64,000 bases of DNA from a candidate division WOR-1 bacterium RIFCSPHIGHO2_01_FULL_53_15 (GTDB taxonomy: Bacteria > Margulisbacteria > WOR-1 > O2-12-FULL-45-9 > XYB2-FULL-48-7). Under the pieces are notes generated by a model, which did not search any database, had not been told where the DNA came from, and worked only from the letters and a program-made list of their open reading frames with translations. This document shows, one piece after another, positions 21,367 through 56,563 of this stretch. The stretch spans positions 57,130-121,129 of the forward strand of contig METM01000021.1 in the NCBI GenBank assembly GCA_001772335.1, in the 5' to 3' direction. The translations under genes were made by a program, and so were the position numbers. Each line of letters begins with the position of its first letter. Position 1 is the stretch's first letter.

Positions 21367-21394
21367 TGAAATTTTTTCAAACAGCTTCCGATAA
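21367..21394 (+). promoter_or_regulatory. promoter-like motif copy 1: TGAAAT-N16-CGATAA
   Basis: tgaaat tttttcaaacagcttc cgataa, 74 nt upstream of the OFOR operon ATG (21468). It shares an extended GAGTGAAATTTTT..GATA.GAAA pattern with copy 2. Confidence 0.45.
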
Positions 21395-21467
21395 GAAACT
21401 TGGAAGACGAAACTCAAATATTAAAAGACTCGGCGAAGTCTTATTCTTGAGAAAGGGGAAAAAATTC

Positions 21468-22688
21468 ATGAGAACTGGGGCCGCGCCGAAAATAGATCTA
21501 AGAATTGTCTCTCCAGTGCATCAGGCACTTCGGACTGGCGTCATCACTCAGGGCAGAAGATTAATCCTCTCCGGCAATGATGCGATCGTCAGAGGGGCGA
21601 TAGATGTCGGCGCGAGAGGTTATTTCGGCTATCCAATAACACCTTCAACCGAAATCGAGGAAGGCGCGGCGCGGTACTTGCTCGGCATGGGCGGTGTTTT
21701 CCTGCAAACGGAAGATGAGATCGCTGCCATTGGGGCAGCGATCGGCGCTTCGCTTGCCGGCTTGAAAGTGTTTACCGCGAGTTCCGGCCCGGGTATCTCT
21801 CTCAAACAAGAGCTTATTGGTTTTGCCGCTATCACCGAAGTTCCACTCGTGATCATTAACGTCCAAAGAGCGGGACCGTCAACGGGCGGACCGACCGATG
21901 TGGGTCAATCAGATGTCATGCAGGCGCGCTGGGGAACCCACGGCGATCATCCCATTATTGTGATCGCGCCTAATTCACCGCAAGAATGCTACGAAGAGAC
22001 TATCCGCGCCTTCAATCTCTCCGAAAGATATCGCATGCCGGTGATCATTCTCTCTGATGCCAAAGTCGGCCAGATGAAAGAACCAGCGATCCTCCCTCCT
22101 TTGGCAAGTATTCCGATCGTCAATCGACGTAAACCCGTCGGTTCTCCGCGCGACTATGAACCTTTCGGGCTGACGGAAGACGGCGTCCCGCCGCTGGCGG
22201 GCTTCGGCGATGGTTTTCGGGCGCATTTTACCGGCCTGTATCATGGGCGAAATGGCTTGCCGACCAAGGATCCAGCGATGGTTGACGAGCAGTTGCGCCG
22301 TATCCATGCCAAGTTAGAAACTGCCGAAGCTAAGGCGGATATCTTAAAAACTGAAGAATTTGTCACTGATGACGCTGATGTGGTCGTGGTCGCGTTCGGC
22401 ATTACCTCGCGCGCCGCTAAAGATGCGGTAATTCTGGCCAGGCAAGCGGGTATCAGAGCCGGCCTTTTACGGCCGATAACGCTCTGGCCTTCGGATGAAG
22501 TGACTATTCTCCGGGTGCTTGGCCGGGCGAAGAAAGTCATCGTCCCGGAACTTAATCTCGGCCAATACGGGCTGGAGATCGATCGATTGGCCGGTCATTT
22601 ATCGCCAAAACCGCAAGTAGTGGGAATCAACAAAGTGGACACAGCGTTGATCTCACCGGCAGATATATTGAGGGAGATAAAGATATGA
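21468..22688 (+). CDS. 2-oxoacid:ferredoxin oxidoreductase, alpha subunit
   Basis: ATG 21468 follows GAAAGGGG. Contains GNDAIVRGAIDVGARGYFGYPITPSTEI and a Kor/Por alpha-type core. The ORF-track GTG at 21366 would put the promoter-like motif inside the gene. Confidence 0.85.
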   Translation: MRTGAAPKIDLRIVSPVHQALRTGVITQGRRLILSGNDAIVRGAIDVGARGYFGYPITPSTEIEEGAARYLLGMGGVFLQTEDEIAAIGAAIGASLAGLKVFTASSGPGISLKQELIGFAAITEVPLVIINVQRAGPSTGGPTDVGQSDVMQARWGTHGDHPIIVIAPNSPQECYEETIRAFNLSERYRMPVIILSDAKVGQMKEPAILPPLASIPIVNRRKPVGSPRDYEPFGLTEDGVPPLAGFGDGFRAHFTGLYHGRNGLPTKDPAMVDEQLRRIHAKLETAEAKADILKTEEFVTDDADVVVVAFGITSRAAKDAVILARQAGIRAGLLRPITLWPSDEVTILRVLGRAKKVIVPELNLGQYGLEIDRLAGHLSPKPQVVGINKVDTALISPADILREIKI

Positions 22689-24181
22689 GGATCAGAATTG
22701 GTCCATTTATGCGGCCAGCCATGAAAAAAAGCATCTGGTGCGAAGGGTGCGGGTTAGGGAACATGTCAAGTATTATCACCAGCGCATTAGTCAGCACCGT
22801 TTCCAAACGCTTGGAAGTTGATCCTAATACCAGAGAAGGGTTAGAACGAATCAAGAACAATATCGCTTTTGTCAGCGGCATTGGCTGTACATCGCGCATG
22901 CCCGGTCAATTGGATTTTAATACTTTGCACACCGCCCATGGCCGCTCGCTGGCCTTTGCCACCGGGATAAAGCTGGCGCGGCCGGAGCTGACCGTCGCGT
23001 TGGCGGCCGGCGACGGAGATATTTTTGCGATCGGCGGCAACCATTTTATTCACACTGCCCGCCGCAACATCGACATGACTCTGATCGTTTATAATAACAA
23101 ATCGTACGGCATGACCGGGGCCCAGCATTCGCCCACTTCTCCGCTGGGGGAGATAGGGACTTCCGCTCCCTACGGCGTGTTTGAGCCGCCCTTCAATGTG
23201 GTCAATTTGGCATTGGGGGCGGGCGCGACTTTTGTCGCCCAGGGAGCGCTGACAACTTCGCAGGAGCATCTGGATCAAGCCGAAGCTTTGATCGTCGCCG
23301 CCCTGGGACACAAGGGCTTTTCCCTGGTCAACCTGATCGGGACCTGCCACACCGGCTGGGGAGCCCGTAACCGCCGCGCCGAAGCTTTTCGCTATCGCAG
23401 GTATCTTGAAGAAAAAGTTATGAAGTTAGAAAGCTGGAAAGCGTTGCCGCCTGACGAACAGGGGAAATATTTTCCGCTCGGGATCATTCACCAGGATGAC
23501 AGCCGGCCGGATTTTCAGAGCAGCAAGCCATATCTTGACGCGATCGAAAGAGCCAAAAAGGCCGTTGCCGGCACACAGGAGCTGTTGGAAGATATTACCC
23601 TTGTGGAACAAGATCCGCTGGCGGTCTATCCCCGCACCAGCGTGCGTTTTGCCGGTTCGGGCGGGCAGGGCGTGCTCACCGCCGGAGAAACGGACCTCTA
23701 CGCGGCTTTCCTTTCGGGGAAAAGCGGGGTTTTTATTAAAAACTATGGGCCGGAGGCGAGGGGTGGCGGGGCTTATTCTCAAGTGACGATCAGCGATGGC
23801 GAGATCCATTTTCCGCAGGCGGAAAATCTGGAGGTCCTTGTTGCCCTGACCCAGGAAGCTTATGACAAATATCGCGGTGAGGTCTCTGCGCAAGGCAAAA
23901 TAATTGTGAACTCAACCGCGGTCAAAGAATTTTACGGCGACGCGAGGGTGATCGCTTCTCCCATCGGCGACCTGCTGGCCCGTGAAGTCCGCCCGCCGAA
24001 GAAAGAGCAGGGGATAAATGTTCTTGCTTTGGCTCTGACGATGGGGCTTTTCAACCTGGCTCCCAGGGGATCGGTTGAAACGGCGGTCAAGAAATATTTC
24101 AGCGATAAAAATCTTAAGATGAATCTTAGGGCTCTGGATGTCGGCTATAAAGAGGCGGAGCGTCAGAGGGGGTTAATCTAA
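22685..24181 (+). CDS. 2-oxoacid:ferredoxin oxidoreductase, beta subunit fused to a gamma domain
   Basis: The N-terminal half has WCEGCGLG and the TPP motif GDGDIFAIGGNHFIHTARRNIDMTLIVYNNKSYGMTGAQ. The C-terminal half has the gamma-type VRFAGSGGQGVLTAG...YGPEARGGGAYSQVTIS. Confidence 0.85.
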   Translation: MRIRIGPFMRPAMKKSIWCEGCGLGNMSSIITSALVSTVSKRLEVDPNTREGLERIKNNIAFVSGIGCTSRMPGQLDFNTLHTAHGRSLAFATGIKLARPELTVALAAGDGDIFAIGGNHFIHTARRNIDMTLIVYNNKSYGMTGAQHSPTSPLGEIGTSAPYGVFEPPFNVVNLALGAGATFVAQGALTTSQEHLDQAEALIVAALGHKGFSLVNLIGTCHTGWGARNRRAEAFRYRRYLEEKVMKLESWKALPPDEQGKYFPLGIIHQDDSRPDFQSSKPYLDAIERAKKAVAGTQELLEDITLVEQDPLAVYPRTSVRFAGSGGQGVLTAGETDLYAAFLSGKSGVFIKNYGPEARGGGAYSQVTISDGEIHFPQAENLEVLVALTQEAYDKYRGEVSAQGKIIVNSTAVKEFYGDARVIASPIGDLLAREVRPPKKEQGINVLALALTMGLFNLAPRGSVETAVKKYFSDKNLKMNLRALDVGYKEAERQRGLI

Positions 24182-25608
24182 TGTCTGTCCAGAATTTGTC
24201 ACGATCGGTAATTGCCCGGGGCCGTCTGTTGCAGCCATCCGAAGCGTTAGTTGGGAGATTGCACAACCTGGTCAAGCTGGCGCAAAACAGCGGTTTTCGG
24301 GTTGATGGCCTTCACCTGGCCAAGGCCTTTCTGAATGAGGTTACTCTGGCGCGGATGGAACAGCTGGTCTTCAATCCCAGGGCGCTGGAGATCTTTAGAG
24401 CCCGGGCCGGCCGGATCGAGTTCATTGTTGAAGGGCCAGTGCCGGCAGAGCTTTTGCGCGAATCGCCGCTCAAACAAGAAGCGATCTTTCGCCAGGCCGT
24501 TGCTTACGATCTTTGCAAGTCCTGCAGTCTGTGCATCAATGTTTGTCCAAAGGATGTTTATGTTGACGACAGGTTTGGGAAGCCGGACAAGGATCAGCGC
24601 CGGGATGAGGAGTGCACGGGAACGAATCAATGCGGCAAGTGCGTTGATGTCTGCCCGGAAAACGCCATTGAAATTACCCTGGCCGACCCCGCCTTTGCTT
24701 CAACCCTGTTTTTACTCCTGGATAATCCCTTTGCCACTGCGCTCTTGGAAGCGGAAGCCGGCGGAGATTTCTATCTGGCTAATCCGCTGGAAACCGGTAG
24801 ACCGCTGAATATCCGAGGGGAAGTCAGTCCCAATGATCTTCTCTTGAGCAATCGAGTCCTGGATGAATCGAATTTTCACCCGGTTTTTGAAATCAATGGC
24901 GCCCACCGGCATTTCGTTGATTCGCCGCGGCCGGCGGAAGACCTAAAAACCTGGGCGCGGGAAAATCATCGTGAGCCGGAATTAGTTTTGGCCGCGATCA
25001 AAGCGCTTTATGCGCATCTGCCGCGCCTCTCCGGCTTAAAAGAGGGGAAATACGCGCTGGGTGAAATGCTCCACCGGATCGCTGATGAGATCATCCTGGC
25101 GGAAGTTGACCTGGCGGCCGATGCCGGTCTCGAGCTACTGAAAAAGATCATTGATGAGAGTTATGTGGCCGAGGCCTTCTTTGGCGCCAAGCGCCGCCCG
25201 ATTGGCGGGCTGCTCCCGCCGGGAACGTCGCCCGCCTGGAAAACCCCTTACGGGAATATGGTCCCGGCTTATGTCCATGCGGAAAAGTGTCTTGGCCCCG
25301 AATGCGCGCTCTGTGTGACCAATTGTCCGGAGGGCAGCGGGGGAGAAACCGCCGCCATCAGAATGGTGCCCCAGGTGCCGCTCGGCACCATTCCTTCACT
25401 GGTGAGAGGGCTGGAAGTTTTTGTCTTGAAATTAGACGGCTCTCATTCCCGGCCGGAAGAAATGGAGAATTTGACCGGTCAGACACCCTTTAAATTTGCC
25501 GTGAATCCCGACTATTGTAAATCATGCGGCACCTGCCTGACCTGCTGTCCGCACGGAGTGATCGAGCCAACAGTGAGGCAGTTTAATTTAGGGGGGACGC
25601 AACAATGA
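24181..25608 (+). CDS. 475-aa iron-sulfur protein with two 2x[4Fe-4S] ferredoxin-like modules (oversized delta-like subunit)
   Basis: Cys motifs CKSCSLCINVCP, CTGTNQCGKCVDVCP, CLGPECALCVTNCP and CKSCGTCLTCCP. The start and stop overlap the flanking OFOR genes. Confidence 0.7.
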   Translation: MSVQNLSRSVIARGRLLQPSEALVGRLHNLVKLAQNSGFRVDGLHLAKAFLNEVTLARMEQLVFNPRALEIFRARAGRIEFIVEGPVPAELLRESPLKQEAIFRQAVAYDLCKSCSLCINVCPKDVYVDDRFGKPDKDQRRDEECTGTNQCGKCVDVCPENAIEITLADPAFASTLFLLLDNPFATALLEAEAGGDFYLANPLETGRPLNIRGEVSPNDLLLSNRVLDESNFHPVFEINGAHRHFVDSPRPAEDLKTWARENHREPELVLAAIKALYAHLPRLSGLKEGKYALGEMLHRIADEIILAEVDLAADAGLELLKKIIDESYVAEAFFGAKRRPIGGLLPPGTSPAWKTPYGNMVPAYVHAEKCLGPECALCVTNCPEGSGGETAAIRMVPQVPLGTIPSLVRGLEVFVLKLDGSHSRPEEMENLTGQTPFKFAVNPDYCKSCGTCLTCCPHGVIEPTVRQFNLGGTQQ

Positions 25609-27875
25609 GCGCTAGAACATTATCTTTGGGAGGTCATCCATTGATCTTGACCGGACGTTCGGGCGACCCGCTTCTCCTGGCGCGGCAAATTCAGCGGGCC
25701 AGTCATGGTCGAGTCGCGGTAACTGCCCAAGGAATACGTCTGGGCGACCTAAACGCAGAAAGATTCAGGGGTTTGGGGATGGATGCCGCGCGGGTGGAGG
25801 GGGTCCTTTCCCAGGTCATTGAGGTTTCATTGAGGCCGGGGGACTACCCGATTGAAACTTTGTTGGATTTGACCAGTCGGGGCTTGGTGATCAGGGATGC
25901 TTTGAATGAACTTTATCGGACCCATCTGCCTTTCATTGTTCAAGATATTGTTCCCGGAATCGAAGCCCGCCAGTTAAAAGTCTTGCTTGAGGGCGGCGCG
26001 GGGTCGGGCGTGGTTTCGGCGGTGCAGGATATAGTAACCGCGTTTTGCAGCGCCGGCTATTATGGCCGCGCCTTCCCGCTGTTCGATCCTTCCAAGAAGG
26101 GCGCGCCGGTCGAGGGCTACGGGATCGTCAGCCGGGAGCCGATCTTAAGCCACGCTCCATTTGAGACGCCGGACATGGTCCTGCTTTTTGACCCTAAACT
26201 CTTTCCGCGCCTGCGGAACCAACTCGGCCGCTATGCCAACGCTGATCCGCGGGGGATGGTCATCCTGGTCAATACGCCGATGACACCGGAGGAATTTCGG
26301 GCGGCGGCCGGCTTTGACGATCCTTTTCTGCTTCATACGCTCAGTGCCGCGGCGATCCTGAAAGGCAAGCGTATCCCGCCCAACTATGCCATGATCGGCG
26401 GCATGCTCGGGATATTAGGGAGAGAGGCGGTCGATCCCGCGGCCTTTGCCGAAGTTGTGCGTGTTTCGTTGACGGAGAAGTTCGGCGGTGGAGAAAATGT
26501 TGAGGCCAATCTCCGAGCCCTAGAAGAAGCGCAGGGCCGGATCATGGGAGAAAGTCCTCATCCTTACGCCCGCGGGTTAAGCGCTCTGGGTAAGGTTTCC
26601 GCTCCGGCGGTGCCCGAGGGGCAGGTAATATTATGCGAGGACGGCAACCGCGCGATCGCGCGGGCGATCGCGATGGTGCTGAATTTATTTCCCTCGGTGG
26701 TGGCCGCTTATCCTATCACGCCCCAGACCCAGATCGTCGAATGGCTCGCCAAGATGATCGCCGATGGAATATTATCGGCCGAAGGGGTAACGCCGGAATC
26801 GGAGCATGGGGCGGGCGCCGCGGTCATGGGGGCGGCTCGCGATCGGGTGCTGGCTTTTACCGCCACCAGCTCGCAAGGTTTAGCGCTGATGTCGGAAAAT
26901 CTTCATTCCTTAGCTGGTATGCGGATGGGTAACGTAGTGCTTTCTAACGTGGTCCGTTCGCTCAATTCGCCGCTGGATGTGGAAAACGATCACGGCGACC
27001 TCTATAAGGTTTTGCTGGATGCGGGCTTCATTATAATGATGAGCCGGGATGTCCAGCAGGCGGCGGATTTCCATCTGATGTCTTACCTGATCGGCATGTA
27101 CGCTGAATATCGGAAAAAAAATGGCCAGCTGGAAATGATCCCGGACAAATCGGTCATGCTGCCCACGGTCGTCGCTTCGGAAGGTTTTGAGGTCAGCCAC
27201 GCTCCGGAGCGCTATGTCGCGTTGACCGATGCGGTGGTAAAACGGTTTTACGATGATTCTTTCTTCAGTTACGTGAAAACATTTGTTGACACGCCCAATC
27301 TTAGCATTACCGGAGCGCTCCAGTTGAGCAACTCCCGCCAGGATACCGATTACCAGCGGCACCTGGCCATGCAGGTAGCTTACCGTGTATTAAAGGAAAT
27401 ATTCGCCAGGTTCGAGCGATACACGGGCAGAAAATACGATTTTATCAGTTCCTACAACGTGCAGGAATCGGATGTTGTTTTTGTGGTCGCGGGCGCCGCC
27501 AACGGGACATTCGAAGAAGTGGCCCGGGAATTCAAGCGGCATGGGATAAACGTCGGCGTAGCGCACCCCAATGTCATTCGGCCTTTTCCTGCCGAGGAAT
27601 GGGCACAGCTCCTGAAGGGAAAAAAGGTCATAGTTTACGACCGCGATGACGCCTATGGCGCCGTCGGCGGTCGGCTTTACACCGAACTGGCGGGCGTGGT
27701 CAATGAACATAAATTAGCGGAGACCGGCACCGACCTCTTTTCCCGGATCTATGGTCTGGGCGGGAGAACGCCGTCGCTTCCCTTTGTTCGAGATGAGATG
27801 CATCAGGCGCTGGCATCACTGGACGGCACCCGGGAGCTCTCAAGATCAAAACAATATAGCGGGGTGAAAATCTAA
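25605..27875 (+). CDS. OFOR gamma-alpha fusion subunit
   Basis: 756 aa. A gamma-like segment (LLEGGAGSGVVSAV...KKGAPVEGYGIVS) is followed by a PorA-like core (GNRAIARAIAMV..VVAAYPITPQTQIVEWL...ESEHGAGAAVMGAA...TATSSQGLALM). Confidence 0.75.
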   Translation: MSARTLSLGGHPLILTGRSGDPLLLARQIQRASHGRVAVTAQGIRLGDLNAERFRGLGMDAARVEGVLSQVIEVSLRPGDYPIETLLDLTSRGLVIRDALNELYRTHLPFIVQDIVPGIEARQLKVLLEGGAGSGVVSAVQDIVTAFCSAGYYGRAFPLFDPSKKGAPVEGYGIVSREPILSHAPFETPDMVLLFDPKLFPRLRNQLGRYANADPRGMVILVNTPMTPEEFRAAAGFDDPFLLHTLSAAAILKGKRIPPNYAMIGGMLGILGREAVDPAAFAEVVRVSLTEKFGGGENVEANLRALEEAQGRIMGESPHPYARGLSALGKVSAPAVPEGQVILCEDGNRAIARAIAMVLNLFPSVVAAYPITPQTQIVEWLAKMIADGILSAEGVTPESEHGAGAAVMGAARDRVLAFTATSSQGLALMSENLHSLAGMRMGNVVLSNVVRSLNSPLDVENDHGDLYKVLLDAGFIIMMSRDVQQAADFHLMSYLIGMYAEYRKKNGQLEMIPDKSVMLPTVVASEGFEVSHAPERYVALTDAVVKRFYDDSFFSYVKTFVDTPNLSITGALQLSNSRQDTDYQRHLAMQVAYRVLKEIFARFERYTGRKYDFISSYNVQESDVVFVVAGAANGTFEEVAREFKRHGINVGVAHPNVIRPFPAEEWAQLLKGKKVIVYDRDDAYGAVGGRLYTELAGVVNEHKLAETGTDLFSRIYGLGGRTPSLPFVRDEMHQALASLDGTRELSRSKQYSGVKI

Positions 27876-30652
27876 TGGCTGTTCAGGCGATAAATAGATC
27901 AAGCTTCTTTACTCCGCGCGTGACGAACCGGTCCGCAGCTCTGCCCGTAGCCGAAAAGTTGATCAAAAGCGCTCGAGCCGTTCAACCGGGGGCCACCCTG
28001 CTTCTTTCTGAAGGATCACTGGCTGTCAATGCCGCCCGGCTCGAACCGGATCGCCTGCTTAACCTGATCGCGCCGGAAAACATGAACCTGGCGGCGGAAG
28101 TCGCGGCATTCGCTTCGCTTTTGGGAACGGAAGTGAGGGATGGAGAATATCAGCTTCAGGGCCTGATGGATGCGGTGAGCAAAAGCCCTTCATTCTCCCA
28201 GCCCACCCGCGGTCAGTTCAACGAATTGAACGATCTCCGGCAGAAGGGGGTCAATTTTACCGATCTGCCCGAGTCGATCGACGAGGCCATGACGGCTCTC
28301 GGGGATTTCTCGCGAGATCTGAACATTTCTATTGAATACCTCACCGGCAACCTGGAGAAAGTCCTGCGGTTGATGAAACTGCTGGGCGTAAGGAACAAAA
28401 CGACAAATTTAAACGCCATCTTCCATAATTTTCAAAACGGATTTTATGAGCTAAGTTTGGCGGAAACCAATGAGCTCGCCTCGTTGGAAATGATCGAAAG
28501 AGCCGGGAAATTGGTGTCCCGGGGCGTGAACTTAGAAATATATGCCACAGGAGCGTTTAACCGGCCGCTGACGTCGTTGAGCGCGGAGCAACTCGACGCC
28601 GCGATCTCGTCGCTGGCGCTTAATTACCAGACGACCGAGGCGGCAGTACGGAAGTTTGTCGGCGCGTTGATCGCCAGCGAGGAAAAACGCATGTCAGCCT
28701 CGCCCGCCCTTTCCTTAAGAGAGCTGCTCGCGGCTTTTAGATTTTCCGATCAGGATGAGAGCGCGGTCGCCATCCCGCCCATGGCCCAGATAGAAGACCC
28801 GACCAGATGGCAGGAAACCGAGCTTGGTCAAGCTCTCCGGGCCCTGCGCCCAAATCTTAACTGGCTGGCAATTTCGGCCGGGGTCAGGGCGGCCGGCGAC
28901 CTGGCTGATTTGAAGGAGAACCCGCGCATCAAGGCCAGACTGCTTAAAATAAAAGAGATGTTGGCCGGCCACTCGATAAATATTTCTTCCGGCCGCAGCG
29001 GCCGGGCGGAAAGCAAATCGATCGGTGAATTGAGCGAAGCGGAGCTTCTATTTGACCTCTACTGCCTGGCCGTGATCAATAAACGGACACTGGCTGAAAC
29101 GATCAAAGCGGCTTTTGAGGCGCTGCATTTTATTGTCAAGCTCGGCAACAGCGATCCGATCGTTTATCTTGACGAACTGATCGAGGGGCGGCTGAAGGGG
29201 GAATCGTTCGCGACCTTGCTTGGCACGCAGGGTTTGATACTGCGCGACTCGCCTATCGGCGCCGCGCTCGAAAAATTGCGATCAGTGGCCGATAAAGTCG
29301 AACTGACCGTTGCAGACAGCCGCGGCAATCCGGTTTCACTCAAAGATACCGGCATTGATGAGTTCCGGCGAGCGATCATCCTGATGGGGCGCGGCTTCCG
29401 GGAGCCGCATTCGCCGGAAAGAGTGCTATCAGCCATCGGCGACAGGGTTGTGCCGGAGATCACCAGACTGCCGCAGGCGGTGGTCGCTCCCGGCGCTCAC
29501 GATCTGGCTCGGTTGGTGGAATTGGCGATCGCGGGAATACCGGCGCGCTATCCTCTGCGCCGCCCGTGGGACAGAGTGAACCTTGACGGCATGGCTTTTA
29601 TGGGGAGCGGGCTGGAACCCGGCATCCGCAACTGCCTGGGCTGTCCGGTTAACGTCCTTTACGGCACTGTGATCAAAGCGGCGCTGGCCAGCGGGTTTTC
29701 TGACATAACGACTTATGAGGCGACGGGCTGTTTTGAGGTCTACGGCGGGATCTGGCCCTATACCGGAAAAAAAATCCCTACACTGCATGGGGTTTTTGGC
29801 GGCGTCGCGTCTGAAATGCTCGGGGGACTCGCGGCCAAGCGCGCGCGTCTCAAGTACGCATTGAAGACCGCCGGGGAGATCGCGCAAACCCTGAAAATAC
29901 TGCATCTGGGTTGGGGTGGTGATGGCGCCACGTTTGATATCGGTTTCGGAAATTTATCCGGTCTGTTCTCCCGCCTGCAGAAGCTCGTGGGTGATGAGCT
30001 AACGCGATATCTGGTCCAGAGAGCCCTGTATGTCTGTGTTGATAACGAGGGTTATCAGAATACCGGCAATCAATGGTCAGCGGCTACGCCGCCGGGGGGA
30101 AATACCACAACTTATCCCGAGGGAAAAGAACGGCCAATGGGCAGTGATATCCGCAAAAAGCCGATCGTTGAGATCATCGCCAATCACGGAGTTGGGTTTG
30201 CCGCCCGGACGGGGATCCACCGCCCCGAGCATATCAGCCGGATCGTGGCGCGCGCCCTGGAGGACGGAGAAAGGGGCGCCTTTCTCCATTTTCTTCAACC
30301 CTGCACGACCGGCTGGAAGTTCAAAGCCGATAATATTGCCTATGACCTGGCCTTCTTGGCGGAGGCGGGCGGGCTTTTCCCGCCGCTGACCATCGAGCAT
30401 GGCATTCCCTATCTGGAGGTTTATCCTACGCCGCGCAATCCGGGGGAAGCGTTTTTGGGGATGCAGGCGCGCTTTAAACATTTAATGGGCGCCGGCGCCG
30501 CTACCAGAGAGAATGTTAATACAGTAATGGAATATTATCGCTCGGAATGGATAAGGAACGTTCAACTTGCCGGTTATGACGGGGAAATTTCCGAGTCAGA
30601 TCGTTTTCGTTACCTTGGGGAAGAACACCGTCTGCCCAGGATCAACGTTTAG
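27875..30652 (+). CDS. OFOR beta (TPP-binding) subunit with ~570-aa N-terminal extension of unknown function
   Basis: 925 aa. From about nt 29600 it is PorB-like: NCLGCPVN, ATGCFEV, and the TPP motif GWGGDGATFDIGFGNL...YVCVDNEGYQNTGNQWSAATPPG. The N-terminal ~570 aa is helical-looking with no motif I recognise. Confidence 0.75.
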   Translation: MAVQAINRSSFFTPRVTNRSAALPVAEKLIKSARAVQPGATLLLSEGSLAVNAARLEPDRLLNLIAPENMNLAAEVAAFASLLGTEVRDGEYQLQGLMDAVSKSPSFSQPTRGQFNELNDLRQKGVNFTDLPESIDEAMTALGDFSRDLNISIEYLTGNLEKVLRLMKLLGVRNKTTNLNAIFHNFQNGFYELSLAETNELASLEMIERAGKLVSRGVNLEIYATGAFNRPLTSLSAEQLDAAISSLALNYQTTEAAVRKFVGALIASEEKRMSASPALSLRELLAAFRFSDQDESAVAIPPMAQIEDPTRWQETELGQALRALRPNLNWLAISAGVRAAGDLADLKENPRIKARLLKIKEMLAGHSINISSGRSGRAESKSIGELSEAELLFDLYCLAVINKRTLAETIKAAFEALHFIVKLGNSDPIVYLDELIEGRLKGESFATLLGTQGLILRDSPIGAALEKLRSVADKVELTVADSRGNPVSLKDTGIDEFRRAIILMGRGFREPHSPERVLSAIGDRVVPEITRLPQAVVAPGAHDLARLVELAIAGIPARYPLRRPWDRVNLDGMAFMGSGLEPGIRNCLGCPVNVLYGTVIKAALASGFSDITTYEATGCFEVYGGIWPYTGKKIPTLHGVFGGVASEMLGGLAAKRARLKYALKTAGEIAQTLKILHLGWGGDGATFDIGFGNLSGLFSRLQKLVGDELTRYLVQRALYVCVDNEGYQNTGNQWSAATPPGGNTTTYPEGKERPMGSDIRKKPIVEIIANHGVGFAARTGIHRPEHISRIVARALEDGERGAFLHFLQPCTTGWKFKADNIAYDLAFLAEAGGLFPPLTIEHGIPYLEVYPTPRNPGEAFLGMQARFKHLMGAGAATRENVNTVMEYYRSEWIRNVQLAGYDGEISESDRFRYLGEEHRLPRINV

Positions 30653-31443: not shown

Positions 31444-33645
<2,202 letters not shown>

Positions 33646-33659
33646 TTAACTAACGACTA

Positions 33660-34260: not shown

Positions 34261-34288
34261 TGAAATTTTTCAAATGGCGGTTCGATAG
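34261..34288 (+). promoter_or_regulatory. promoter-like motif copy 2: TGAAAT-N16-CGATAG
   Basis: tgaaat ttttcaaatggcggtt cgatag, upstream of the TIM-like/PPDK genes. Confidence 0.45.
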
Positions 34289-34323
34289 AGAAATGGCGGC
34301 TCAAGAGATCGAACGAGATTCAG

Positions 34324-34354
34324 AAGCCCCGGAAAATTGTTCGGGGCTTTTTTT
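34324..34354 (+). terminator. intrinsic terminator-like hairpin in the leader of the TIM-like gene
   Basis: aagccccg / gaaaattgtt / cggggctt, followed by a run of T (7 T in total). There is no plus-strand gene upstream, so this is either an attenuator or the 3' end of a small RNA. Confidence 0.65.
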
Positions 34355-40974: not shown

Positions 40975-41002
40975 TTATCGGCCAAACCGGCGGGAAATTT
41001 CA
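40975..41002 (-). promoter_or_regulatory. promoter-like motif copy 5 (minus strand): TGAAAT-N16-CGATAA
   Basis: The minus strand reads tgaaat ttcccgccggtttggc cgataa gaaagtgct ATG. The -10-like element ends 9 nt before the start codon at 40965, so the transcript would be nearly leaderless. Confidence 0.45.
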
Positions 41003-41035: not shown

Positions 41036-41063
41036 TGAAATTTTGTTTTATGGCCGCAGATAT
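41036..41063 (+). promoter_or_regulatory. promoter-like motif copy 4: (T)TGAAAT-N16-AGATAT
   Basis: cttgaaat tttgttttatggccgc agatat, 15 nt before ATG 41079. Confidence 0.4.
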
Positions 41064-41078
41064 ATAGCTGGGAGAAAC

Positions 41079-43589: not shown

Positions 43590-43592
43590 CCT

Positions 43593-43620
43593 GAAATTTC
43601 TTAAACGGCCTATCGAAAGA
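43593..43620 (+). promoter_or_regulatory. promoter-like motif copy 3: TGAAAT-N16-CGAAAG
   Basis: tgaaat ttcttaaacggcctat cgaaag, immediately after the upstream stop codon and 27-42 nt before the next start. Confidence 0.4.
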
Positions 43621-46600: not shown

Positions 46601-47180
46601 CGTCATTAGCCAGCTGGGCAAACTGAGCCAGCGGCGGATGGCAATTCTCAATAAGATTTTTGAGATCGAAGGTTCGCTCGTGTATAACGTTGAGTTGCGC
46701 AATCTGGGCGAAAAAGAGGTTCCCTATCTTCATGTCCGGCCCGGCTCAAAACAGGGCTTGGGTTCCGCCTATGTCTCACGGGCGGATGCGGGCTTTACTG
46801 CCGCCTCTACCCACAAGGCCGATACAATCATTCAATCCGGCATTTGGATCAGCAACCTGGGCCTTGATGGGCAAAGCGAAGCATTTGGCAATCGTCACTA
46901 CGTGGCCATTCCGCACAGAACGGGAGACAAAACCGGTGAGATCACCTTGTTATTTGGCCGCTTCAGGAAAAATGTGTCATTGGCGGAGCGGAAGGAATTG
47001 TTTGCCGATGAGATCGGGAGTGTTTTACGTTTTATCGGAGACGAGAAGATCGACATAACCGATCCGATCATGCGTGAAAAGATTGATGCGGCATTATTGC
47101 TGATCCCGCTCCACGAGTTTTTCGAGCGCGATAAAAAGGGCCTTTACGTTAAATATGTTAAGCCGGCGCTGACAAGCTAA
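43647..47180 (+). CDS. 1177-aa multidomain protein: hydrophobic HExxH N-terminal region + circularly permuted enolase + unknown C-terminal domain
   Basis: The N-terminal third has LSWHAGIAIHEMGHYLTA (HExxH in a hydrophobic stretch) and a later LLGPGVVGLLDRL, both reminiscent of M50. The enolase barrel comes first: AMGGRH (from 44715), MQESMF, GLEGGIAP, LDPAASE (D at 45036), SIEDG (E at 45210), IGDDL (45291), VKLNQIGT (K at 45366), SHRS (H at 45450) and QKTGGGANTER (K at 45519). The enolase N-domain follows: PLGTSAGETEAIHLVD (S at 45867), RYDGKG and GMNAILSMSLALGRA. The start may be ATG 43662, which follows GGAGG. Confidence 0.75.
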   Translation: MGGKTMIRVGERVDRLATRVMTPIVSKMAGNRTLGNLAMSASYRTALAADLAGFRSWQMGSALQRAADLQGVENYSALMNRYAPLSSSFLPGPLQPASGSYLERGWVIANHKLVSFHAAFISSVLSLSDDVQGKLETLKFMFLSTETVVSSAMLYLSWHAGIAIHEMGHYLTAAKLTALNKASQEAADSMKDKGLLSKVGWYSKMFMTIPWGKFEGVKNDGGNYSPDSPYNLAVSAAGPRWSSYLALVALPAATAAISAGLIFGSETATYIGRFLLGPGVVGLLDRLLADPGKLKEFNTREERAKVAAAEATRRAAEMGDLAEELSNIRQTLINSRMVTITLADGSKVSAPWQWRNCAMGGRHTEKEYPESNISMQESMFIPLSAKTYEDAQEMTLKLQTRLKEIIEKSPGGKVMGIGLEGGIAPYLEKEAGDKVPEQRLWRLMKQAILDCGYIPGKDVAIALDPAASELENAYRKQNKMPDSVGRYYFWRGKENISMSRDEMLALYKEAIEKDGVPIISIEDGFGERDHEGWGLLMKEMGDRLFVIGDDLVTTNDAIIEEGARKGLINAVLVKLNQIGTVSEAVLAMLTGMAYGAEMIISHRSKSPNDPFEADVSTAMNAVGQKTGGGANTERLQKYGRVVEILSFAENTGRPLTGSEKQESLRLLQELVNELTGRTDVSVLPEMADRDISELMFRLLAIESVIGTEEPTNAGIPSAKATLLLSRSGGVRFTGSTPLGTSAGETEAIHLVDSIIAPDEVTAKYPDLFNVVPEDKTLRFKKDVRRGYVIAKNDAALLVMFDRAKRYDGKGCLTAAGNIETILAKAFKGKRVSSLGSLAEIDAELLRLEKEQAVARGILAADAPVDDQIHVMQRKGTIGMNAILSMSLALGRALAASQGKELWQLIRESAMDVMAKFVAAHSADPAKKDVRALKAMNIDDLRVLFRETAKRLIAEGKEIHGVLRELLPVYALPEDVRARAIFTDRLVISQLGKLSQRRMAILNKIFEIEGSLVYNVELRNLGEKEVPYLHVRPGSKQGLGSAYVSRADAGFTAASTHKADTIIQSGIWISNLGLDGQSEAFGNRHYVAIPHRTGDKTGEITLLFGRFRKNVSLAERKELFADEIGSVLRFIGDEKIDITDPIMREKIDAALLLIPLHEFFERDKKGLYVKYVKPALTS

Positions 47181-47221
47181 ATTGTTTAGAAACTGTTCCA
47201 AATAACATGGGAGGGGAAAAA

Positions 47222-47428
47222 ATGCTAAAGGAATTCCGCTGCAAATTCTGCCACCGCCTGCTGGCCAAAGTCGGCGAGGGATCGAAAGTCGAGATCAAGT
47301 GCCCCAAATGCAAAACGCTGAGCCTCTATAATGAAGAAACGGTCGTCGTCTACGAAGTGCCCGAGAACAACGTCACCAAAAAGATCATCGAGCGCGGCTG
47401 GGTCAAGTACGACGTGATCCAGAACTGA
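47222..47428 (+). CDS. Com-family zinc-ribbon protein
   Basis: ATG 47222 follows GGGAGGGG. FRCKFCHRLLAKVGEGSKVEIKCPKCKTLSLY matches the Mu Com pattern RCxxCxKLL.....EI.CP.CK. Confidence 0.55.
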   Translation: MLKEFRCKFCHRLLAKVGEGSKVEIKCPKCKTLSLYNEETVVVYEVPENNVTKKIIERGWVKYDVIQN

Positions 47429-47446
47429 GTGGAAGAAAGATGAAAA

Positions 47447-48748
47447 ATGAGCATTAAGCTAAATCCGACCCATTTAAGGCATTTTCGACCGATAAACACC
47501 ATATCAATCGGTCGGGGAGCGACCGTTGCGTTAAAGGTTGATTTTAACGTGACGATAAAAGACGGGAAGATTCAGAACCCGGAGAAAATTAGAGCCGCTT
47601 TTAGGACTATTGACCATTTACTGGCGTCGGGCGCAAATATTGTAATTTATACTCATCTGGGCCAGCCCAAGAAGGGCTGTGAGGCAAAGACATCCCTGAA
47701 CCTCGTGGCTGATTTCTTGGCCGAAAAATACGGCAGGGACACGGTTATTAACGGGGAATCGTTAATTACGCCGGATGAAAACGGTTTTCTGCCGACGGAA
47801 CAATATATTAATAAGGCCGTGCGAGAAGCCGCGGTCGGCCTGGGCGGCAAGGCCAGGATATTGTTGATGCCGAACGTGAGATGGGCGGCTTATGAACAGG
47901 CCAAACCGACCGATCCCGGTCATCAAGCACTGGCTCAAGCCATGCTGGGACTCTCCGATGGCTTTGCAGTTTTTGACGCCGCGGCGGTCTGGAATAAGGA
48001 GCATGCTTCGATCACAACCATGCTCCGGCTGGCCGGCCTGAACAATATCGCCTGGGGTTTCCATGCTCATGAAATGGCTGAACTGCTGGTGAGAAGGTTT
48101 ACCGGCGACATACCGCGGCCGTATGTTCTGCACATTTCCGGCACAAAGGCGGATAAAATGGGTTATATCCTTGATTTTCTGGGTAACCCGCAAATTGACT
48201 CCATTTTAGTTTCGGGCAATATCGCCAACGGTTTGATGGAGGTTTTGGGCAGGTCTGTCGGCGCCGCGGCGGGAACCTACGGCGCGCCCGAGTTGGAAAA
48301 AGCGAGAAGAATCGTAAACCATCCGCGCTTCGGCGGTGCGGTTTCCCTGCCGGTTGATTTTATTATTGCCAGACCGGACGGGTCTGACCGCCGGTATTTG
48401 GCTCAAGGAGAAATTATCCCCGAAGGCTTCAGGCAGTTTGATATCGGCAGAGAGACCGCTTCTCTCTACGCGAAAATACTGGCTACGGCCGGCCTGGCTG
48501 TTAACTCCGGTGTCCCGGGCGCTTTTGACTTTGGCAACCCGCCGTTTGAAGAGGGGACAAAGGTTGTCCTGCCCGGCTTTGCAAGAGCCAAGCAGAGCAT
48601 TAATCTCGGCGGTGACGGCGGGATCGCCGCGGAAAAATACCTGACGCCGGAAGAGCTGGCGCGGACCGAAGTTTTAGTCGCGGGCGGTTCTTTCCTGCAC
48701 GCCATGGCGCACCAGACCTTCCCCGTGGCCGAAGTATTCTTAAATTAA
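47447..48748 (+). CDS. phosphoglycerate-kinase-fold protein, strongly divergent (PGK-like)
   Basis: 433 aa. ALKVDFNVTIKDGKIQNPEKIRAAFRTIDHLLASGANIVIYTHLGQPKKG~RVDFNVP..G.I..D.RI.A.LPTI..L...GA.V...SHLGRP. Also PNVRW~ENVRF, DAAAVWNKEHAS~DAFGTAHRAHAS, ISGTKADK~GGSKVSDK, NSGVPGAFDF~WNGPMGVFE, LGGDGG~GGGDT and VAGGSFLHAM~STGGGA.LE. Confidence 0.7.
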   Translation: MSIKLNPTHLRHFRPINTISIGRGATVALKVDFNVTIKDGKIQNPEKIRAAFRTIDHLLASGANIVIYTHLGQPKKGCEAKTSLNLVADFLAEKYGRDTVINGESLITPDENGFLPTEQYINKAVREAAVGLGGKARILLMPNVRWAAYEQAKPTDPGHQALAQAMLGLSDGFAVFDAAAVWNKEHASITTMLRLAGLNNIAWGFHAHEMAELLVRRFTGDIPRPYVLHISGTKADKMGYILDFLGNPQIDSILVSGNIANGLMEVLGRSVGAAAGTYGAPELEKARRIVNHPRFGGAVSLPVDFIIARPDGSDRRYLAQGEIIPEGFRQFDIGRETASLYAKILATAGLAVNSGVPGAFDFGNPPFEEGTKVVLPGFARAKQSINLGGDGGIAAEKYLTPEELARTEVLVAGGSFLHAMAHQTFPVAEVFLN

Positions 48749-48828
48749 AAAACTGACAAGTTAATCAAAAGTCGATTGGAATTACGGCTTTTATTTTTTG
48801 GGGAAAATAAAAAAAGGAGGAAAAGAAA

Positions 48829-49896
48829 ATGAGCGGAGTTGGAAAGGCAACGGTTAATTTGATGAGGTTGGGCAGGAACGGGCTGCACGCGCCGGGGCTA
48901 AGATCTGCGGTGATCAAGAATAATTTTAAGGCCGCGCTGGATAGATCGAGGGGCAACGCGACGACTTATCCGATCGATCATATCGAGGAGCACGGGCCGG
49001 CCCACTATTTTGTCCGGGGCATGCTGCGCAGTTTTGATCCGGGCGCGGTAGTCGAAGTCGCCCGCGAGGGGGGCGTTATGGCCATGGCGGTGTTGCCGGG
49101 GCTGGGCCAGCAGATCGGCCAGCTGACCAAAGGCGACATGCCGCTGATCTGGAAGCTTAACCGCGGTTCGGGCGCGAAGGTCAATGGCGATGCTACCACC
49201 GTCAGACTTTACAGTGACGTTGATAAAGCGATGAGCGTTGCCGTTGATAACGGCGCCAGGTTCTGGGGCGCGACTTTTTACAACGGCTCGGCCAATGTTC
49301 CCGACATGATCCAGCAGCTGGCTGAAATGGACGAAGCCGGCGCGCGCCACGGCCTGGGCGGCGTGGTTTGGAATTATCCGAGGGGGAGCGAGATTCCGAA
49401 AGGGCATGACGCGGATATCATGTATCAATTAGAGGGTTTTGAGCGGATAATCAACGCTTGTCCGGGCAGCCTGGTTCTGGTCAAGGAGAAGGTTTCCACC
49501 CTGCCCGGGACGGTCGCGGATTGGGAGGCGGGAGAGATAGAAAAGGTTGGCCGGGGCGAAGGCGCCTGGGGCAAACCCGGGACAAAAGGGGTTAAGGACG
49601 AGGTTGTCCGAACCTTTCTGGCCATGAATCGCGCCGTCCATATCGCCTTTATGGTCGAGCTTCAGCACAATCAGGGGATTGCCAGCTTGATGTCGGGCGG
49701 AGCGCCGCAGGAACGCGAAAAATTCGAAGCCGATCTAAATGACGGTATCGGCCCTGATCGGCATGTCGCGTTCATCGCCGGCCGTTCGACCACCAATGAA
49801 ATAAAGTACCAGGTTGACGAATATGATATTTCCGGCGCGGTCAGACACATGCACATGTTGAGGGACGCGGCGCCGAAAGTTGTCATAGAAGGATAA
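48829..49896 (+). CDS. class I aldolase-fold protein (FbaB/DhnA-like), divergent
   Basis: 355 aa with an AAGGAGG SD. TYPIDHIEEHGP~ILPVDQGVEHSA. GATFYNGSANVPDMIQQLAEMDEAGARHGLGGVVWNYPRG~[47 protein letters not shown]~ADIVKQK (Schiff-base Lys kept). SLMSGGAP and FIAGRS~ILGRK. The E. coli FbaB sequence was recalled from memory. Confidence 0.55.
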   Translation: MSGVGKATVNLMRLGRNGLHAPGLRSAVIKNNFKAALDRSRGNATTYPIDHIEEHGPAHYFVRGMLRSFDPGAVVEVAREGGVMAMAVLPGLGQQIGQLTKGDMPLIWKLNRGSGAKVNGDATTVRLYSDVDKAMSVAVDNGARFWGATFYNGSANVPDMIQQLAEMDEAGARHGLGGVVWNYPRGSEIPKGHDADIMYQLEGFERIINACPGSLVLVKEKVSTLPGTVADWEAGEIEKVGRGEGAWGKPGTKGVKDEVVRTFLAMNRAVHIAFMVELQHNQGIASLMSGGAPQEREKFEADLNDGIGPDRHVAFIAGRSTTNEIKYQVDEYDISGAVRHMHMLRDAAPKVVIEG

Positions 49897-49929
49897 GTTT
49901 GCGATAAGTCAGCAGGAGGGATTTTGGCC

Positions 49930-51420
49930 ATGGCGGGCATATTAGGAGCAAGGAGATTAAATATCGGTCCCGAGATCCGGGCTCGGGCCAGCGCGCTCAC
50001 GGCGCATAACAGGCAGGGGACAGTTCCCCTCCCGGCTTATATCGGACGACCCGGCATGGTCTTGATCTCCGATTCACACGGCGCAGTTGACACTTATCTT
50101 AAGCTTTACGAAGCGCTGCCTTCCACAGTAAGATTCGGCATTGATTTGGGCGACAAAGTTGACCGCGGACCAAGCCCCATTGAAATGAATTATGTCCTGC
50201 AAACTTTACGGGTGAGGCGCGTCCTCGGCAACCACGATGCCATGTGGGTCGCGGCCGGGCTGGGCGTGCCGGCGCAATCCATTGAATTGGTCCGTTGGTT
50301 AATGCGCTATAACGAAGTCGATTTTTTGACATCCGCGCTCGGGGTTGACTTGAAGCCATTGACGCAATTTGCCGGAAGCAGGTTTTCCGAAGGCGCGCAT
50401 CGTATCGATGTGAAATCGAAGCGGTTCAAGAGCGAAGAAGCTGCTGCGACATATTTAAAGATCATTGCTGAAGCAGGGGTTAGGTTCCCAGAACATCGCT
50501 CAACCGAACTTAGTCCTTCTGATCTAAGGATCAGGGAAGCCCTGTTCTTAAAAGGTTCAGCAGAGGCATTAGCGCCTTCTGAAAGGGACATTTTTAACAG
50601 GCTTACAGGCGATGCGCCGTTGAGCGGGGATGACCAATCCTATTTTTATCGTTTGATGGGAGGACTAAAAGTTCTTCAGCCCGAAGAACAAGCAGTTGTG
50701 AATCACTTTGCAAATGAATTCAGAAACAATTATGCGTTTTACCAATTTGTAAAATGGATGGCCGGGGAGGGAGATCTTTATCTTAATTTCCGGATCAGAC
50801 AGGGCTATTCTAGCGACATTCTGGCCTTGCACGCGACGGTTCCGCTCACCGCCGACGGTGAATTGGCTGAATTTGACGGCCGATACGGCAGGGAAGCGCT
50901 GCTGCATTTGAAAGACCGAATACAGCTGGGGCTCGAGGCCTGGAGGCAAATGTTGGAACACGATGATCAGGGACTGCTGGAAATGCATCAAAACGATATA
51001 AGTGTTTTAGGTTTGCTGCCCTGGGACAGGCGATCGCCTATTTACGCGAGGCAAATGCAGACTGCGGCCCGGGCCGTGCTCAATGAAAAGACCGGAACCT
51101 GGGAAGAGCCCAAAGAACCATTCTTTTCTGTTTTTGAGAAAGGGGAAGATCTTCAGGCGCTGGCAAACGCCCGCAGGAATATTGCCGCGTCATTTGGCTT
51201 TAGGAATCCCAATAATTTTGTCATTGTGCGCGGGCATGAGCCAAGCAAGGACGGCATGTTCCAGGTGTTCGCCGGTGGCACTGTCATTAACATAGATGGA
51301 GGCATGGCTGAAAAATACGGCGGCAAAGGCGGCGCACTTGTTATGGGGTCGGCCGGCGCGGCCTGGCTTGCCTACCCAAGCATGAATTACACAAGAGTTC
51401 CCTTGCCGGAATCGGTTTAA
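49930..51420 (+). CDS. metallophosphoesterase of the class 3 fructose-1,6-bisphosphatase type (FBPase-III-like), divergent and shorter
   Basis: ISDSHG, GDKVDRGPSP, LGNHDAMWVAAGLG...LMRYNEVDFL...GVDLKPLTQFA, VRGHEP and INIDGGMAEKYGGKGG follow the order of motifs in Bacillus-type Fbp. The start is ATG 49930, or TTG 49924 as in the ORF track. Confidence 0.55.
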   Translation: MAGILGARRLNIGPEIRARASALTAHNRQGTVPLPAYIGRPGMVLISDSHGAVDTYLKLYEALPSTVRFGIDLGDKVDRGPSPIEMNYVLQTLRVRRVLGNHDAMWVAAGLGVPAQSIELVRWLMRYNEVDFLTSALGVDLKPLTQFAGSRFSEGAHRIDVKSKRFKSEEAAATYLKIIAEAGVRFPEHRSTELSPSDLRIREALFLKGSAEALAPSERDIFNRLTGDAPLSGDDQSYFYRLMGGLKVLQPEEQAVVNHFANEFRNNYAFYQFVKWMAGEGDLYLNFRIRQGYSSDILALHATVPLTADGELAEFDGRYGREALLHLKDRIQLGLEAWRQMLEHDDQGLLEMHQNDISVLGLLPWDRRSPIYARQMQTAARAVLNEKTGTWEEPKEPFFSVFEKGEDLQALANARRNIAASFGFRNPNNFVIVRGHEPSKDGMFQVFAGGTVINIDGGMAEKYGGKGGALVMGSAGAAWLAYPSMNYTRVPLPESV

Positions 51421-51497: not shown

Positions 51498-51526
51498 TTG
51501 ACAAGTAGAGAATTATCGGATATTAT
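51498..51526 (+). promoter_or_regulatory. sigma-70-like promoter TTGACA-N17-TATTAT for the ATPase gene
   Basis: ttgaca agtagagaattatcgga tattat, 30 nt before GTG 51557. Confidence 0.45.
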
Positions 51527-54367: not shown

Positions 54368-54555
54368 TATTTTTCTCGAATTTTATCGCTAATCACTATC
54401 ACGAAACTTCTCGAAAGATTGTTCACGAATTGCTGCCCATATCTTACGAATGTTTCTCGAATAATTATAGTAATTCGTGAGAAATTAGTGAAGATTAGTG
54501 AAATGATACGGGATTAATATTTAGTGATAATTAGCGATCGTGATTGGTGATAAGA
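54368..54555. repeat. AT-rich 188-bp spacer built from degenerate words with dyad symmetry
   Basis: The left half has the words TTCTCGAA, TTCACGAA and CTTACGAA. Their complements (TTCGTGAGAA) and ATTAGTGA lie in the right half. The end segment 54383-54405 (ttatcgctaatcactatcacgaa) is an imperfect inverted match of 54521-54554. Confidence 0.6.
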
Positions 54556-56437: not shown

Positions 56438-56446
56438 ATTATATCA
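56438..56446 (-). promoter_or_regulatory. extended -10 TGaTATAAT, 6 nt before the radical-SAM ATG (leaderless configuration)
   Basis: The minus strand reads tgatataat tttaat ATG. Confidence 0.5.
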
Positions 56447-56458
56447 TGAGTTTCGTAA

Positions 56459-56518
56459 CCCCACACTAAAGTGTGGGGAATATATATTGAGGATAATTCC
56501 CCATACTTCAGTATGGGG
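56459..56518. repeat. two related 8-bp-stem hairpins 40 bp apart in a divergent promoter region
   Basis: ccccacac taaa gtgtgggg (56459-56478) and ccccatac ttca gtatgggg (56499-56518). Confidence 0.8.
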
Positions 56519-56535
56519 ATTCTCACCTTATCATC

Positions 56536-56563
56536 TGAAATTCTCTGCGGAAAGAGGCGAAGA
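56536..56563 (+). promoter_or_regulatory. promoter-like motif copy 6: TGAAAT-N16-CGAAGA
   Basis: tgaaat tctctgcggaaagagg cgaaga, 48 nt before GTG 56612. Confidence 0.4.

Follow-up and report, generated by a model that had tools for sequence, protein, structure and literature searches.

A conserved TGAAAT-N16-CGATA motif as a putative lineage-specific promoter type before oxidoreductase and glycolytic genes in Saganbacteria/Margulisbacteria

Group 2 sigma factors read sigma-70-type -10 elements, and one of them, the cyanobacterial SigE, is said to control sugar catabolism, as Osanai et al. reportedly described in 2005. Sigma-28 of E. coli has the consensus TAAAGTTT-n11-GCCGATAA, and a T-to-C change in its TAAA (the CAAA mutant) lowered the activity of the E. 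coli aer promoter about ten-fold, with ~90% of it lost (PMC2859248). In the open complex of P. aeruginosa sigma-28 at the fliC promoter, the corresponding elements are (-36)TCTAAAG(-30) and (-15)GCCGATAA(-8), with A-11 flipped out and -7 unread (PMC12784957). The promoters of extracytoplasmic function (ECF) sigma factors in Bacillus carry tGAAACnTTTt with AAC as the hallmark, followed by a -10 element CGTA, CGTC or, for sigmaX, CGAC (PMC5758882). Here we analyse a stretch of 64,000 nt (the window) from candidate division WOR-1 bacterium RIFCSPHIGHO2_01_FULL_53_15 (Saganbacteria), an organism with a protein 100% identical to the enolase fusion encoded here, and in this window copies of the motif TGAAAT-N16-CGATA stand before an operon for 2-oxoacid:ferredoxin oxidoreductase (OFOR) and before a divergent cluster of glycolytic genes. 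To our knowledge, the transcription signals of this lineage, an uncultivated sister of the Cyanobacteria, have not been described, and our literature search yielded no report on sigma factors or promoters of Saganbacteria. Judged from its sequence, TGAAAT-N16-CGATA is a lineage-specific promoter type in Saganbacteria/Margulisbacteria.

What sets the motif apart is its strict spacing, its position and orientation, its conservation before orthologues, its restriction to one lineage and its contrast with the sigma-70-type promoters of the same loci. Scoring TGAAAT-N16-CGAWAR as the exact pattern, with dinucleotide shuffles for the chance level, we found 4 exact matches in the window versus a shuffle mean of 0.11, and no shuffle reached 4; relaxing the C to M in the window scan gave no extra match. 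The search was extended to a pooled set of 209 kb (Saganbacteria/Margulisbacteria, about nine genomes), in which the window was joined by related loci obtained via homologues of the enolase fusion, of OFOR-alpha and of two genes at the window ends. In this set the N16 pattern has 23 exact matches versus 0.47 in shuffles (maximum 3), and each of the other spacings from N12 to N21 has 0-2. A control set of 149 kb from unrelated genomes has 0 N16 matches. The earlier note on this DNA had proposed comparing intergenic with intragenic rates, and this comparison, made over the window and the related loci, places 22 of the 23 exact matches in intergenic DNA, all pointing at the next gene. Intergenic DNA makes up only ~4% of the first 153 kb analysed and holds 14/15 exact matches and 22/32 matches with at most one mismatch, all of them facing the downstream gene.

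Six copies had been listed for the window in the earlier note, all intergenic, each facing the adjacent gene and each with a spacing of 16, and these three attributes hold for all six; as class members, however, four are exact matches, a fifth is a one-mismatch variant, and the last scores at background. Site 1 (GTGAAATTTTTTCAAACAGCTTCCGATAA, 21367..21394, + strand) is exact, scores 32.9 with a 37-nt position weight matrix (PWM) and lies 74 nt upstream of the first ATG of the OFOR operon (21468), with a predicted start at ~21401-21402. Site 2 (GTGAAATTTTTCAAATGGCGGTTCGATAG, 34261..34288, +), also exact (PWM 36.8), stands before the TIM-like and PPDK genes and has T-G-G at the predicted start, G34295; the longer pattern GAGTGAAATTTTT...CGATA.(A)GAAA previously described as common to sites 1 and 2 is indeed present in both. 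Site 3 (TGAAATTTCCCGCCGGTTTGGCCGATAA, 40975..41002, - strand) is an exact copy for the PPDK-like 1 gene, and its -10 half is a complete sigma-28 GCCGATAA; its predicted start at 40968 lies 3 nt before the ATG, so that the PPDK-like 1 mRNA would be almost leaderless. Facing the other way, site 4 (41036..41063, +), for PPDK-like 2, has one mismatch in a -10 that reads AGATAT, scores 26.6 and shows T-G-G (41069-41071) at the predicted start, 41070, and we regard it as a credible variant. Site 5 (CTGAAATTTCTTAAACGGCCTATCGAAAG, 43592..43619, +; exact, PWM 30.7), for the enolase-fusion operon, had been placed at 43593, which is one base off; its predicted start is 43626. Site 6 (TGAAATTC...CGAAGA, 56536..56563, +), with one mismatch, precedes a gene for a 520-aa hypothetical protein that has no homologue in the related locus L001 by tblastn. 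With only 12.9 in the full model and a leave-one-out score that is among the two lowest (0.5, 1.3), it is at background, and it is without the TTT tract and the start-site context found elsewhere, so its predicted membership in the class is doubtful. Scanning with the PWM revealed no additional strong site and left 56536 at background.

The logo of 25 sites shows how far the conservation extends beyond the two hexamers. Upstream DNA is A/T-rich; T1 G2 A3 A4 A5 T6 are invariant, T7 and T8 nearly so, and the spacer continues with a pyrimidine tract and an AAA. Five bases are conserved in the -10 half (C23 in 21/25, G24 and A25 in 25/25 each, T26 in 20/25, A27 in 22/25), and position 28 is free. 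A T-R-G signature (T34 20/25, R35 24/25, G36 18/25) lies 6-8 nt past CGATAN, and its T34-R35 step recurs in 5/7 sites outside the logo. This pyrimidine-purine step, 7-8 nt past the hexamer, has the look of a transcription start. The starts predicted in this way never fall behind a plausible start codon; those of PPDK-like 1 (40968) and of hyp682, a gene for a 682-aa hypothetical protein in a flank of the source genome (L016, 7891), fall on or just before the ATG, and both mRNAs would thus be leaderless or nearly so. From the predicted start position it also follows that a 99-aa open reading frame (ORF) in L002 should begin at its second Met, as do its orthologues. Two sub-types of the motif can be told apart, one mostly before metabolic genes, (A)GTGAAATTTTT...AAA...CGATA(A), and one before other genes, CTGAAATTTCCCC...AAAT...CGATATATATAG; they may reflect two related sigma factors or an extra factor.

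Whether the motif precedes orthologous clusters had been raised as a further check, and it does: in eight other genomes of the phylum it stands before enolase-fusion, PPDK-like, zinc-ribbon, iPGM-like or PFK genes. The genomes from which these orthologues come have proteins 47-71% identical and a G+C content of 43-55%. Counted by gene, 7 genomes have retained the motif before the enolase fusion; it is likewise retained before PPDK-like 1 in 6, before the zinc-ribbon gene in 3 and before the OFOR operon in 2. Exact or one-mismatch copies precede the enolase-fusion orthologue in L001, L002, L003, L015, L022 and L023, and the PPDK-like 1 orthologue in L001, L002, L003, L004 and L022. Within 20.5 kb, the Saganbacteria metagenome-assembled genome (MAG) L001 has six exact copies, each of them in intergenic DNA and directed at a gene, and the related contigs L002-L004 carry exact or one-mismatch copies before orthologous genes. 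In L022, from Ca. Margulisbacteria, one copy precedes PFK, and a divergent pair arranged back to back belongs to PPDK-like 1 and the enolase fusion. L023, placed in the same phylum by its EF-G, has three exact copies, before the zinc-ribbon, enolase-fusion and PPDK_N-like genes, and the metagenome contig L015 has the motif before the enolase fusion and before a 505-aa ORF. The link between the OFOR operon and the divergent glycolytic cluster that had been proposed for the window is supported: in the related contig L012, exact copies precede the orthologous OFOR operon (5037-5063) and an iPGM-like gene. The flanks of the source genome add an exact copy before hyp682, just beyond the window end (L016), and a TGTAAT variant before a 66-aa gene (L019).

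This conservation is confined to the lineage. The five-gene OFOR operon is present in L012 and also in L014, from an unrelated organism, and the motif was not found before the operon of L014, on which ground we rejected conservation of the OFOR promoter outside the phylum. Nor was it found in a Phycisphaerales genome (L024) before the enolase-fusion homologue, which stands alone there, and the idea of a motif travelling with the enolase-fusion gene across phyla was likewise rejected. Loci L005-L011, which encode proteins 22-26% identical to PPDK-like 1 in unrelated phyla, were used as negative controls only.

In the relatives the motif also precedes a conserved gene for a 92-99-aa protein, a Ser/Thr kinase gene and several hypothetical genes. 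The 92-99-aa protein is helical, belongs to no Pfam family and always has a motif promoter (L001 1504-1782, L002 4641-4940, L003 6233-6517); its gene lies ahead of one for an ABC ATPase and, in both L001 and L003, behind one for a histidine kinase. The protein may be a regulatory partner.

Other genes of the same loci use a different promoter type, as had been observed before. Extended -10 elements of the window are TGCTATAAT at 12954-12962 (+), 6 nt before the MetRS ATG, for which a leaderless mRNA is predicted, and TGATATAAT at 62508-62516 (-), 6 nt before the gatC ATG, and at 56438-56446 (-), before a radical SAM gene; the sigma-70-type promoters TTGACA-N17-TATATT and TTGACA-N17-TATTAT lie at 30733-30761 and 51498-51526, respectively. 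TGnTATAAT or TTGACA-N17-TATAAT occurs at MetRS, gatCAB, radical-SAM, icd, ddl, ftsZ, IGPS and other genes. Since housekeeping genes have sigma-70-type promoters, the motif marks a second promoter class and not the general one. The housekeeping -10 is often only 6-9 nt from the start codon, both in the window and in many cases in L001, L002, L012 and L016, so that sigma-70-type promoters of this lineage seem commonly to give leaderless mRNAs. At site 2, the opposite strand carries one further promoter of this type (34245-34273, -; TTGAAA-N17-TAAAAT plus a TG), which overlaps the -35 and spacer of the site and faces a 23S_IVP gene.

We consider it likely that the motif is the core promoter of this second class and is read by an alternative sigma-70-family factor rather than by the housekeeping sigma. 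Sigma region 4 would contact (G/C)TGAAATTT at about -35/-28, region 2 would contact CGATA at -13/-9 and flip out A-11, and transcription would start at the conserved purine of T-R-G, 7-8 nt past CGATAN; the upstream A/T-rich stretch, the T-tract and the spacer AAA probably aid binding. Setting +1 at position 36 places AAA at -33/-31 and CGATA at -13/-9. The transcriptional activity of the motif promoters, their start site and their sigma factor are what we infer from these sequence patterns. As to the kind of factor, a group-3, sigma-28-like one is our tentative preference. The -10 core CGATA(A) is identical to that of sigma-28, with its CGA conserved; the distance from the first A of AAA to the C of CGA is 20 nt, which corresponds to the 11 nt between the sigma-28 octamers, and only N16 is enriched here; the register of AAA and CGATA is that of the P. 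aeruginosa fliC open complex; and the unconstrained last base of the hexamer fits a sigma-28 that ignores -7. Flagellins, and FlgV homologues co-conserved with sigma-28, have been reported from Margulisbacteria (PMC7018530, PMC11607428), and because of these reports a sigma-28-family gene in the phylum is plausible. Several observations weigh against this account of the promoter and its sigma factor. The TAAA hallmark of sigma-28 is GAAA in 25/25 sites, a T and not a G follows AAA in 25/25, and the GC of GCCGATAA is unconserved. The targets are OFOR, glycolysis/gluconeogenesis, kinase and hypothetical genes, with 0 flagellar or chemotaxis genes in the ~210 kb examined. The AAC hallmark of Bacillus ECF promoters is AAT in 25/25 logo sites and in all 8 later ones. 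According to the gene tables, the window and ~145 kb of related loci contain no sigma factor gene or Sigma70 domain. The loci were chosen through cluster or OFOR genes, which biases the apparent regulon composition toward these, and the gene starts in the window are ORF calls made in this analysis, that of the enolase fusion being different from its annotated start. Ten hypothetical proteins encoded beside motif sites have no sigma, anti-sigma or FlgM domain in Pfam.

The earlier comparison with SigW of Bacillus remains apt in part, and an ECF (group 4) factor of the sigmaW/X/V kind that reads TGAAAT plus the T-tract, with CGAT at -10, is the rather unlikely but closest competitor to a sigma-28-like one. 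The motif shares five of the six -35 bases of TGAAAC-N16-CGTA, its 16-nt spacing and a CG-initial -10; the T-tract beside the -35 is that of tGAAACnTTTt; and sigmaX, which uses CGAC, is matched by the invariant third-base A of the -10 and by two sites here that read CGACA. The resemblance ends at the hallmark AAC, absent from every site as said above, and at the -10, which is CGATA, the sigma-28 core, and not CGT(A/C), with conservation running on through TA over five bases, unlike the short ECF CGT core. Moreover, the targets belong to central metabolism and not to envelope functions, and no motif-bearing sigma/anti-sigma operon was seen in the sequence examined. We conclude that the predicted promoter is sigma-28-like in its -10 and geometry and ECF-like in its -35. 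Cyanobacterial SigE offers a parallel from the sister lineage of Margulisbacteria, as an alternative sigma dedicated to glycolytic/sugar-catabolic genes; it reads nothing like CGATA, and the parallel would be functional only.

The motif had alternatively been read as a sigma-70 promoter with a TTGAAA -35, an 18-nt spacer and a GATAAG -10. This reading fails because A-11 and T-7 are lacking and because the CG (C23, G24) outside the hexamer is the most conserved part of the -10. In the 17-nt register, where nTGAAA lies at the place of TTGACA, the hexamer is CGATAN and both A-11 and T-7 are missing; the 18-nt register gives GATANA, where -7 is A instead of T in 16/25 sites; and a T precedes TGAAAT in only 3/25. 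An activator that recruits the polymerase could still make up for a long spacer and a weak GATAAG, with TGAAATTT and CGATA as its contacts, and the imperfect TGAAA-TTTCA inverted repeat in many metabolic-class sites would suit such a protein. However, the spacing of TGAAA and TTTCA differs among sites, the two halves of the motif form neither a direct nor an inverted repeat, and these loci do contain good TGnTATAAT promoters; we hold the housekeeping sigma to be a very unlikely reader of the motif, even with an activator. As a short conserved intergenic motif with a second repeated word, TTTCTCGA, near sites 2-4, it might also have no part in the core promoter and instead bind a repressor or another regulator, or be a small element of a repeated or mobile kind. 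Its strict orientation to the downstream gene, its fixed distance to the Y-R start-site signature, its place directly before start codons in the near-leaderless cases, the lack of flanking repeat structure, and its retention at orthologous positions where the surrounding intergenic sequence has diverged all make this account highly improbable. A CcpA cre-like or CRP-like palindrome was rejected, the halves being 16 nt apart and asymmetric, and so was a sigma-54 promoter, as there is no GG/GC pair.

If the motif is indeed read by an alternative sigma factor, in the window it would drive the OFOR operon, the TIM-like-PPDK genes, both PPDK-like genes and the enolase-fusion/PGK/aldolase/FBPase operon, so that the pyruvate node would be co-regulated with lower glycolysis/gluconeogenesis; in relatives it would also drive PFK, the iPGM-like gene, the Com-like zinc-ribbon gene and several genes of unknown function. 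The metabolic targets appear to span the route from pyruvate/2-oxoacid to sugar phosphate and may form a co-regulated, possibly pyrophosphate (PPi)-dependent, reversible glycolysis/gluconeogenesis. The common regulon suggested for the OFOR operon and the cluster therefore stands as a shared one, but it is not confined to them, since the kinase and hypothetical genes of relatives and hyp682 carry the motif. The unbiased portion of the source genome (~60 kb) consists of 20 kb of flanks and of those parts of the window that lie outside the cluster. It contains two strong sites (OFOR, hyp682) and two weak ones, from which the regulon may be put, very roughly, at tens of promoters.

A well-defined second promoter class would allow regulon prediction directly from MAGs. 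Through the motif, the PPDK-like and enolase-fusion proteins, which are highly divergent, are connected with OFOR, PFK, FBPase, PGK and iPGM, and this supports them as parts of one central carbon pathway. A sigma-28-type -10 at metabolism genes also bears on the evolutionary re-use of sigma specificities. One quite unlikely scenario is that a sigma-28-family factor has moved from motility to a PPi-type glycolysis/gluconeogenesis and OFOR regulon, with a -35 change of TAAA to GAAA and with the Com-like protein as an RNA-binding anti-terminator or translational activator on the leaders. The predicted starts, point mutations and candidate leaders are concrete enough to be used in metatranscriptomics and heterologous in vitro transcription.

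The leaders in question carry terminator hairpins after several of the cluster promoters, where attenuation would provide a second tier of control. At site 2, sequence and fold indicate a strong hairpin followed by a U-run (AGAAGCCCCGG-loop-CGGGGCTTTTTTT, 34322..34354, +), a candidate attenuator that lies ~27 nt past the predicted start at 34295 and ~70 nt before the TIM-like ATG at 34422. Leaders with a terminator hairpin were found at 34295-34421 in the window, at 6923-7035 and 11743-11830 in L001, at 9866-9915 and 14716-14770 in L002, at 9906-9962 in L003 and at 84-160 in L004. The promoter-leader-terminator arrangement precedes the enolase fusion in L001, L002 and L003 and PPDK-like 1 in L004, and further copies of the leader element lie upstream of FBPase in L001 and, in L002, between FBA and the zinc-ribbon gene. 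Base changes in the stems are compensatory across the window and L001-L004, and GGCTCAGAAGC-like words are repeated 5' of the stem. GAGATCG(A/T)AC(G)AGATTCAGA(A/G)GCC is common to the window and L002, and a 26-nt stretch is nearly identical before the TIM-like gene of the window and before FBA in L002. No Rfam family reached its gathering score at the leaders, the only above-threshold match in the window being a tRNA. Since leaders are absent from several orthologous promoters (site 5 of the window, L015, L022 and L023), they are an optional second tier, which possibly acts by attenuation. Past the site-2 terminator (34362-34400) and between sites 3 and 4 (41010-41020) we also find TTTCTCGA and its complement, a word to which a regulator may bind.

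A Mu Com-like zinc-ribbon protein of 67-73 aa is kept within the cluster, often with its own motif promoter (PF10122; window 47207-47428 on the + strand, L001 11539-11742, L002 14478-14687 and L023 7061-7267); a 68-aa counterpart in L015 (4364-4570) was assigned by position only. Mu Com is an RNA-binding translational activator, and an action of the Com-like protein on the leader hairpins is speculation on our part.

The genes behind the motif sites were assigned with Pfam. Site 1 is followed by the five-gene OFOR operon (21468..30652, +), whose products match, in order, POR_N/PFOR_II, TPP_C+POR, Fer4, POR+POR_N and a TPP_C-like domain. Behind site 2 are the TIM-like gene (34422-35182, +; TIM, E=5.5e-15) and PPDK (35207-38257, +; PPDK_N, PEP-utilizers, PEP-utilizers_C), behind site 3 PPDK-like 1 (38287-40965, -), and behind site 4 PPDK-like 2 (+), with a probable ATG at 41079 and its end at 43589. 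Site 5 precedes the genes for the 1177-aa enolase fusion (43647-47180), the Com-like zinc ribbon, PGK (47447-48748), a DeoC-type aldolase (48829-49896) and FBPase_2 (49924-51420), all on the + strand, which, given the short gaps and the lack of another promoter match, probably form one or two transcription units (43647..51420). An iPGM gene and a canonical enolase are also in the window. In the enolase fusion, Enolase_C lies ahead of Enolase_N; its C-terminal extension of ~200 aa was found in Saganbacteria-type proteins only, and a metagenome search with this extension returned a single locus, L015. Planctomycetes (Phycisphaerae) very commonly have a version of the fusion of ~900 aa, and there are also doubled versions, of 1666-1888 aa.

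A tRNA gene (33570-33642, -; Rfam 67.9 bits) separates the canonical enolase from the 23S_IVP gene; since the long ORF call for the enolase overlaps it, the true enolase start should be further downstream. The 23S_rRNA_IVP-family gene (33706-34065) is flanked by 62-nt direct repeats (33653-33714 and 34113-34174) that are 85% identical and each contain a GC-rich palindrome, and the whole looks like a cassette; words akin to these repeats, AACGACTAACAAC, occur in L001. The convergent intergenic region after iPGM (54368-54555) is also dense in repeats, with ATTTTTCTCGAAT present three times and TTAGTGA.. twice.

Two AbiEii toxin genes and an AAA_14/DUF4143 ATPase gene are interspersed between the metabolic operons, at 11447-12921 (-), 30811-32227 (+) and 51557-52729 (+). 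Each AbiEii gene adjoins a small upstream gene; that at 30811 encodes a protein with a weak, sub-threshold AbiEi match, and that at 11447 has no Pfam match. Strong TTGACA-N17-TATAtT promoters precede two of these, the 30811 unit and the ATPase gene. The latter stands between FBPase and iPGM, and the iPGM-like gene of L012 has its own motif promoter. Finally, the word CCGATAT occurs eight times, every 186-192 nt, from 9463 to 10798 in the gene for a 1322-aa Ig-like protein (7383-11351, -), a periodicity that points to tandem repeats of ~63 aa in a surface protein.

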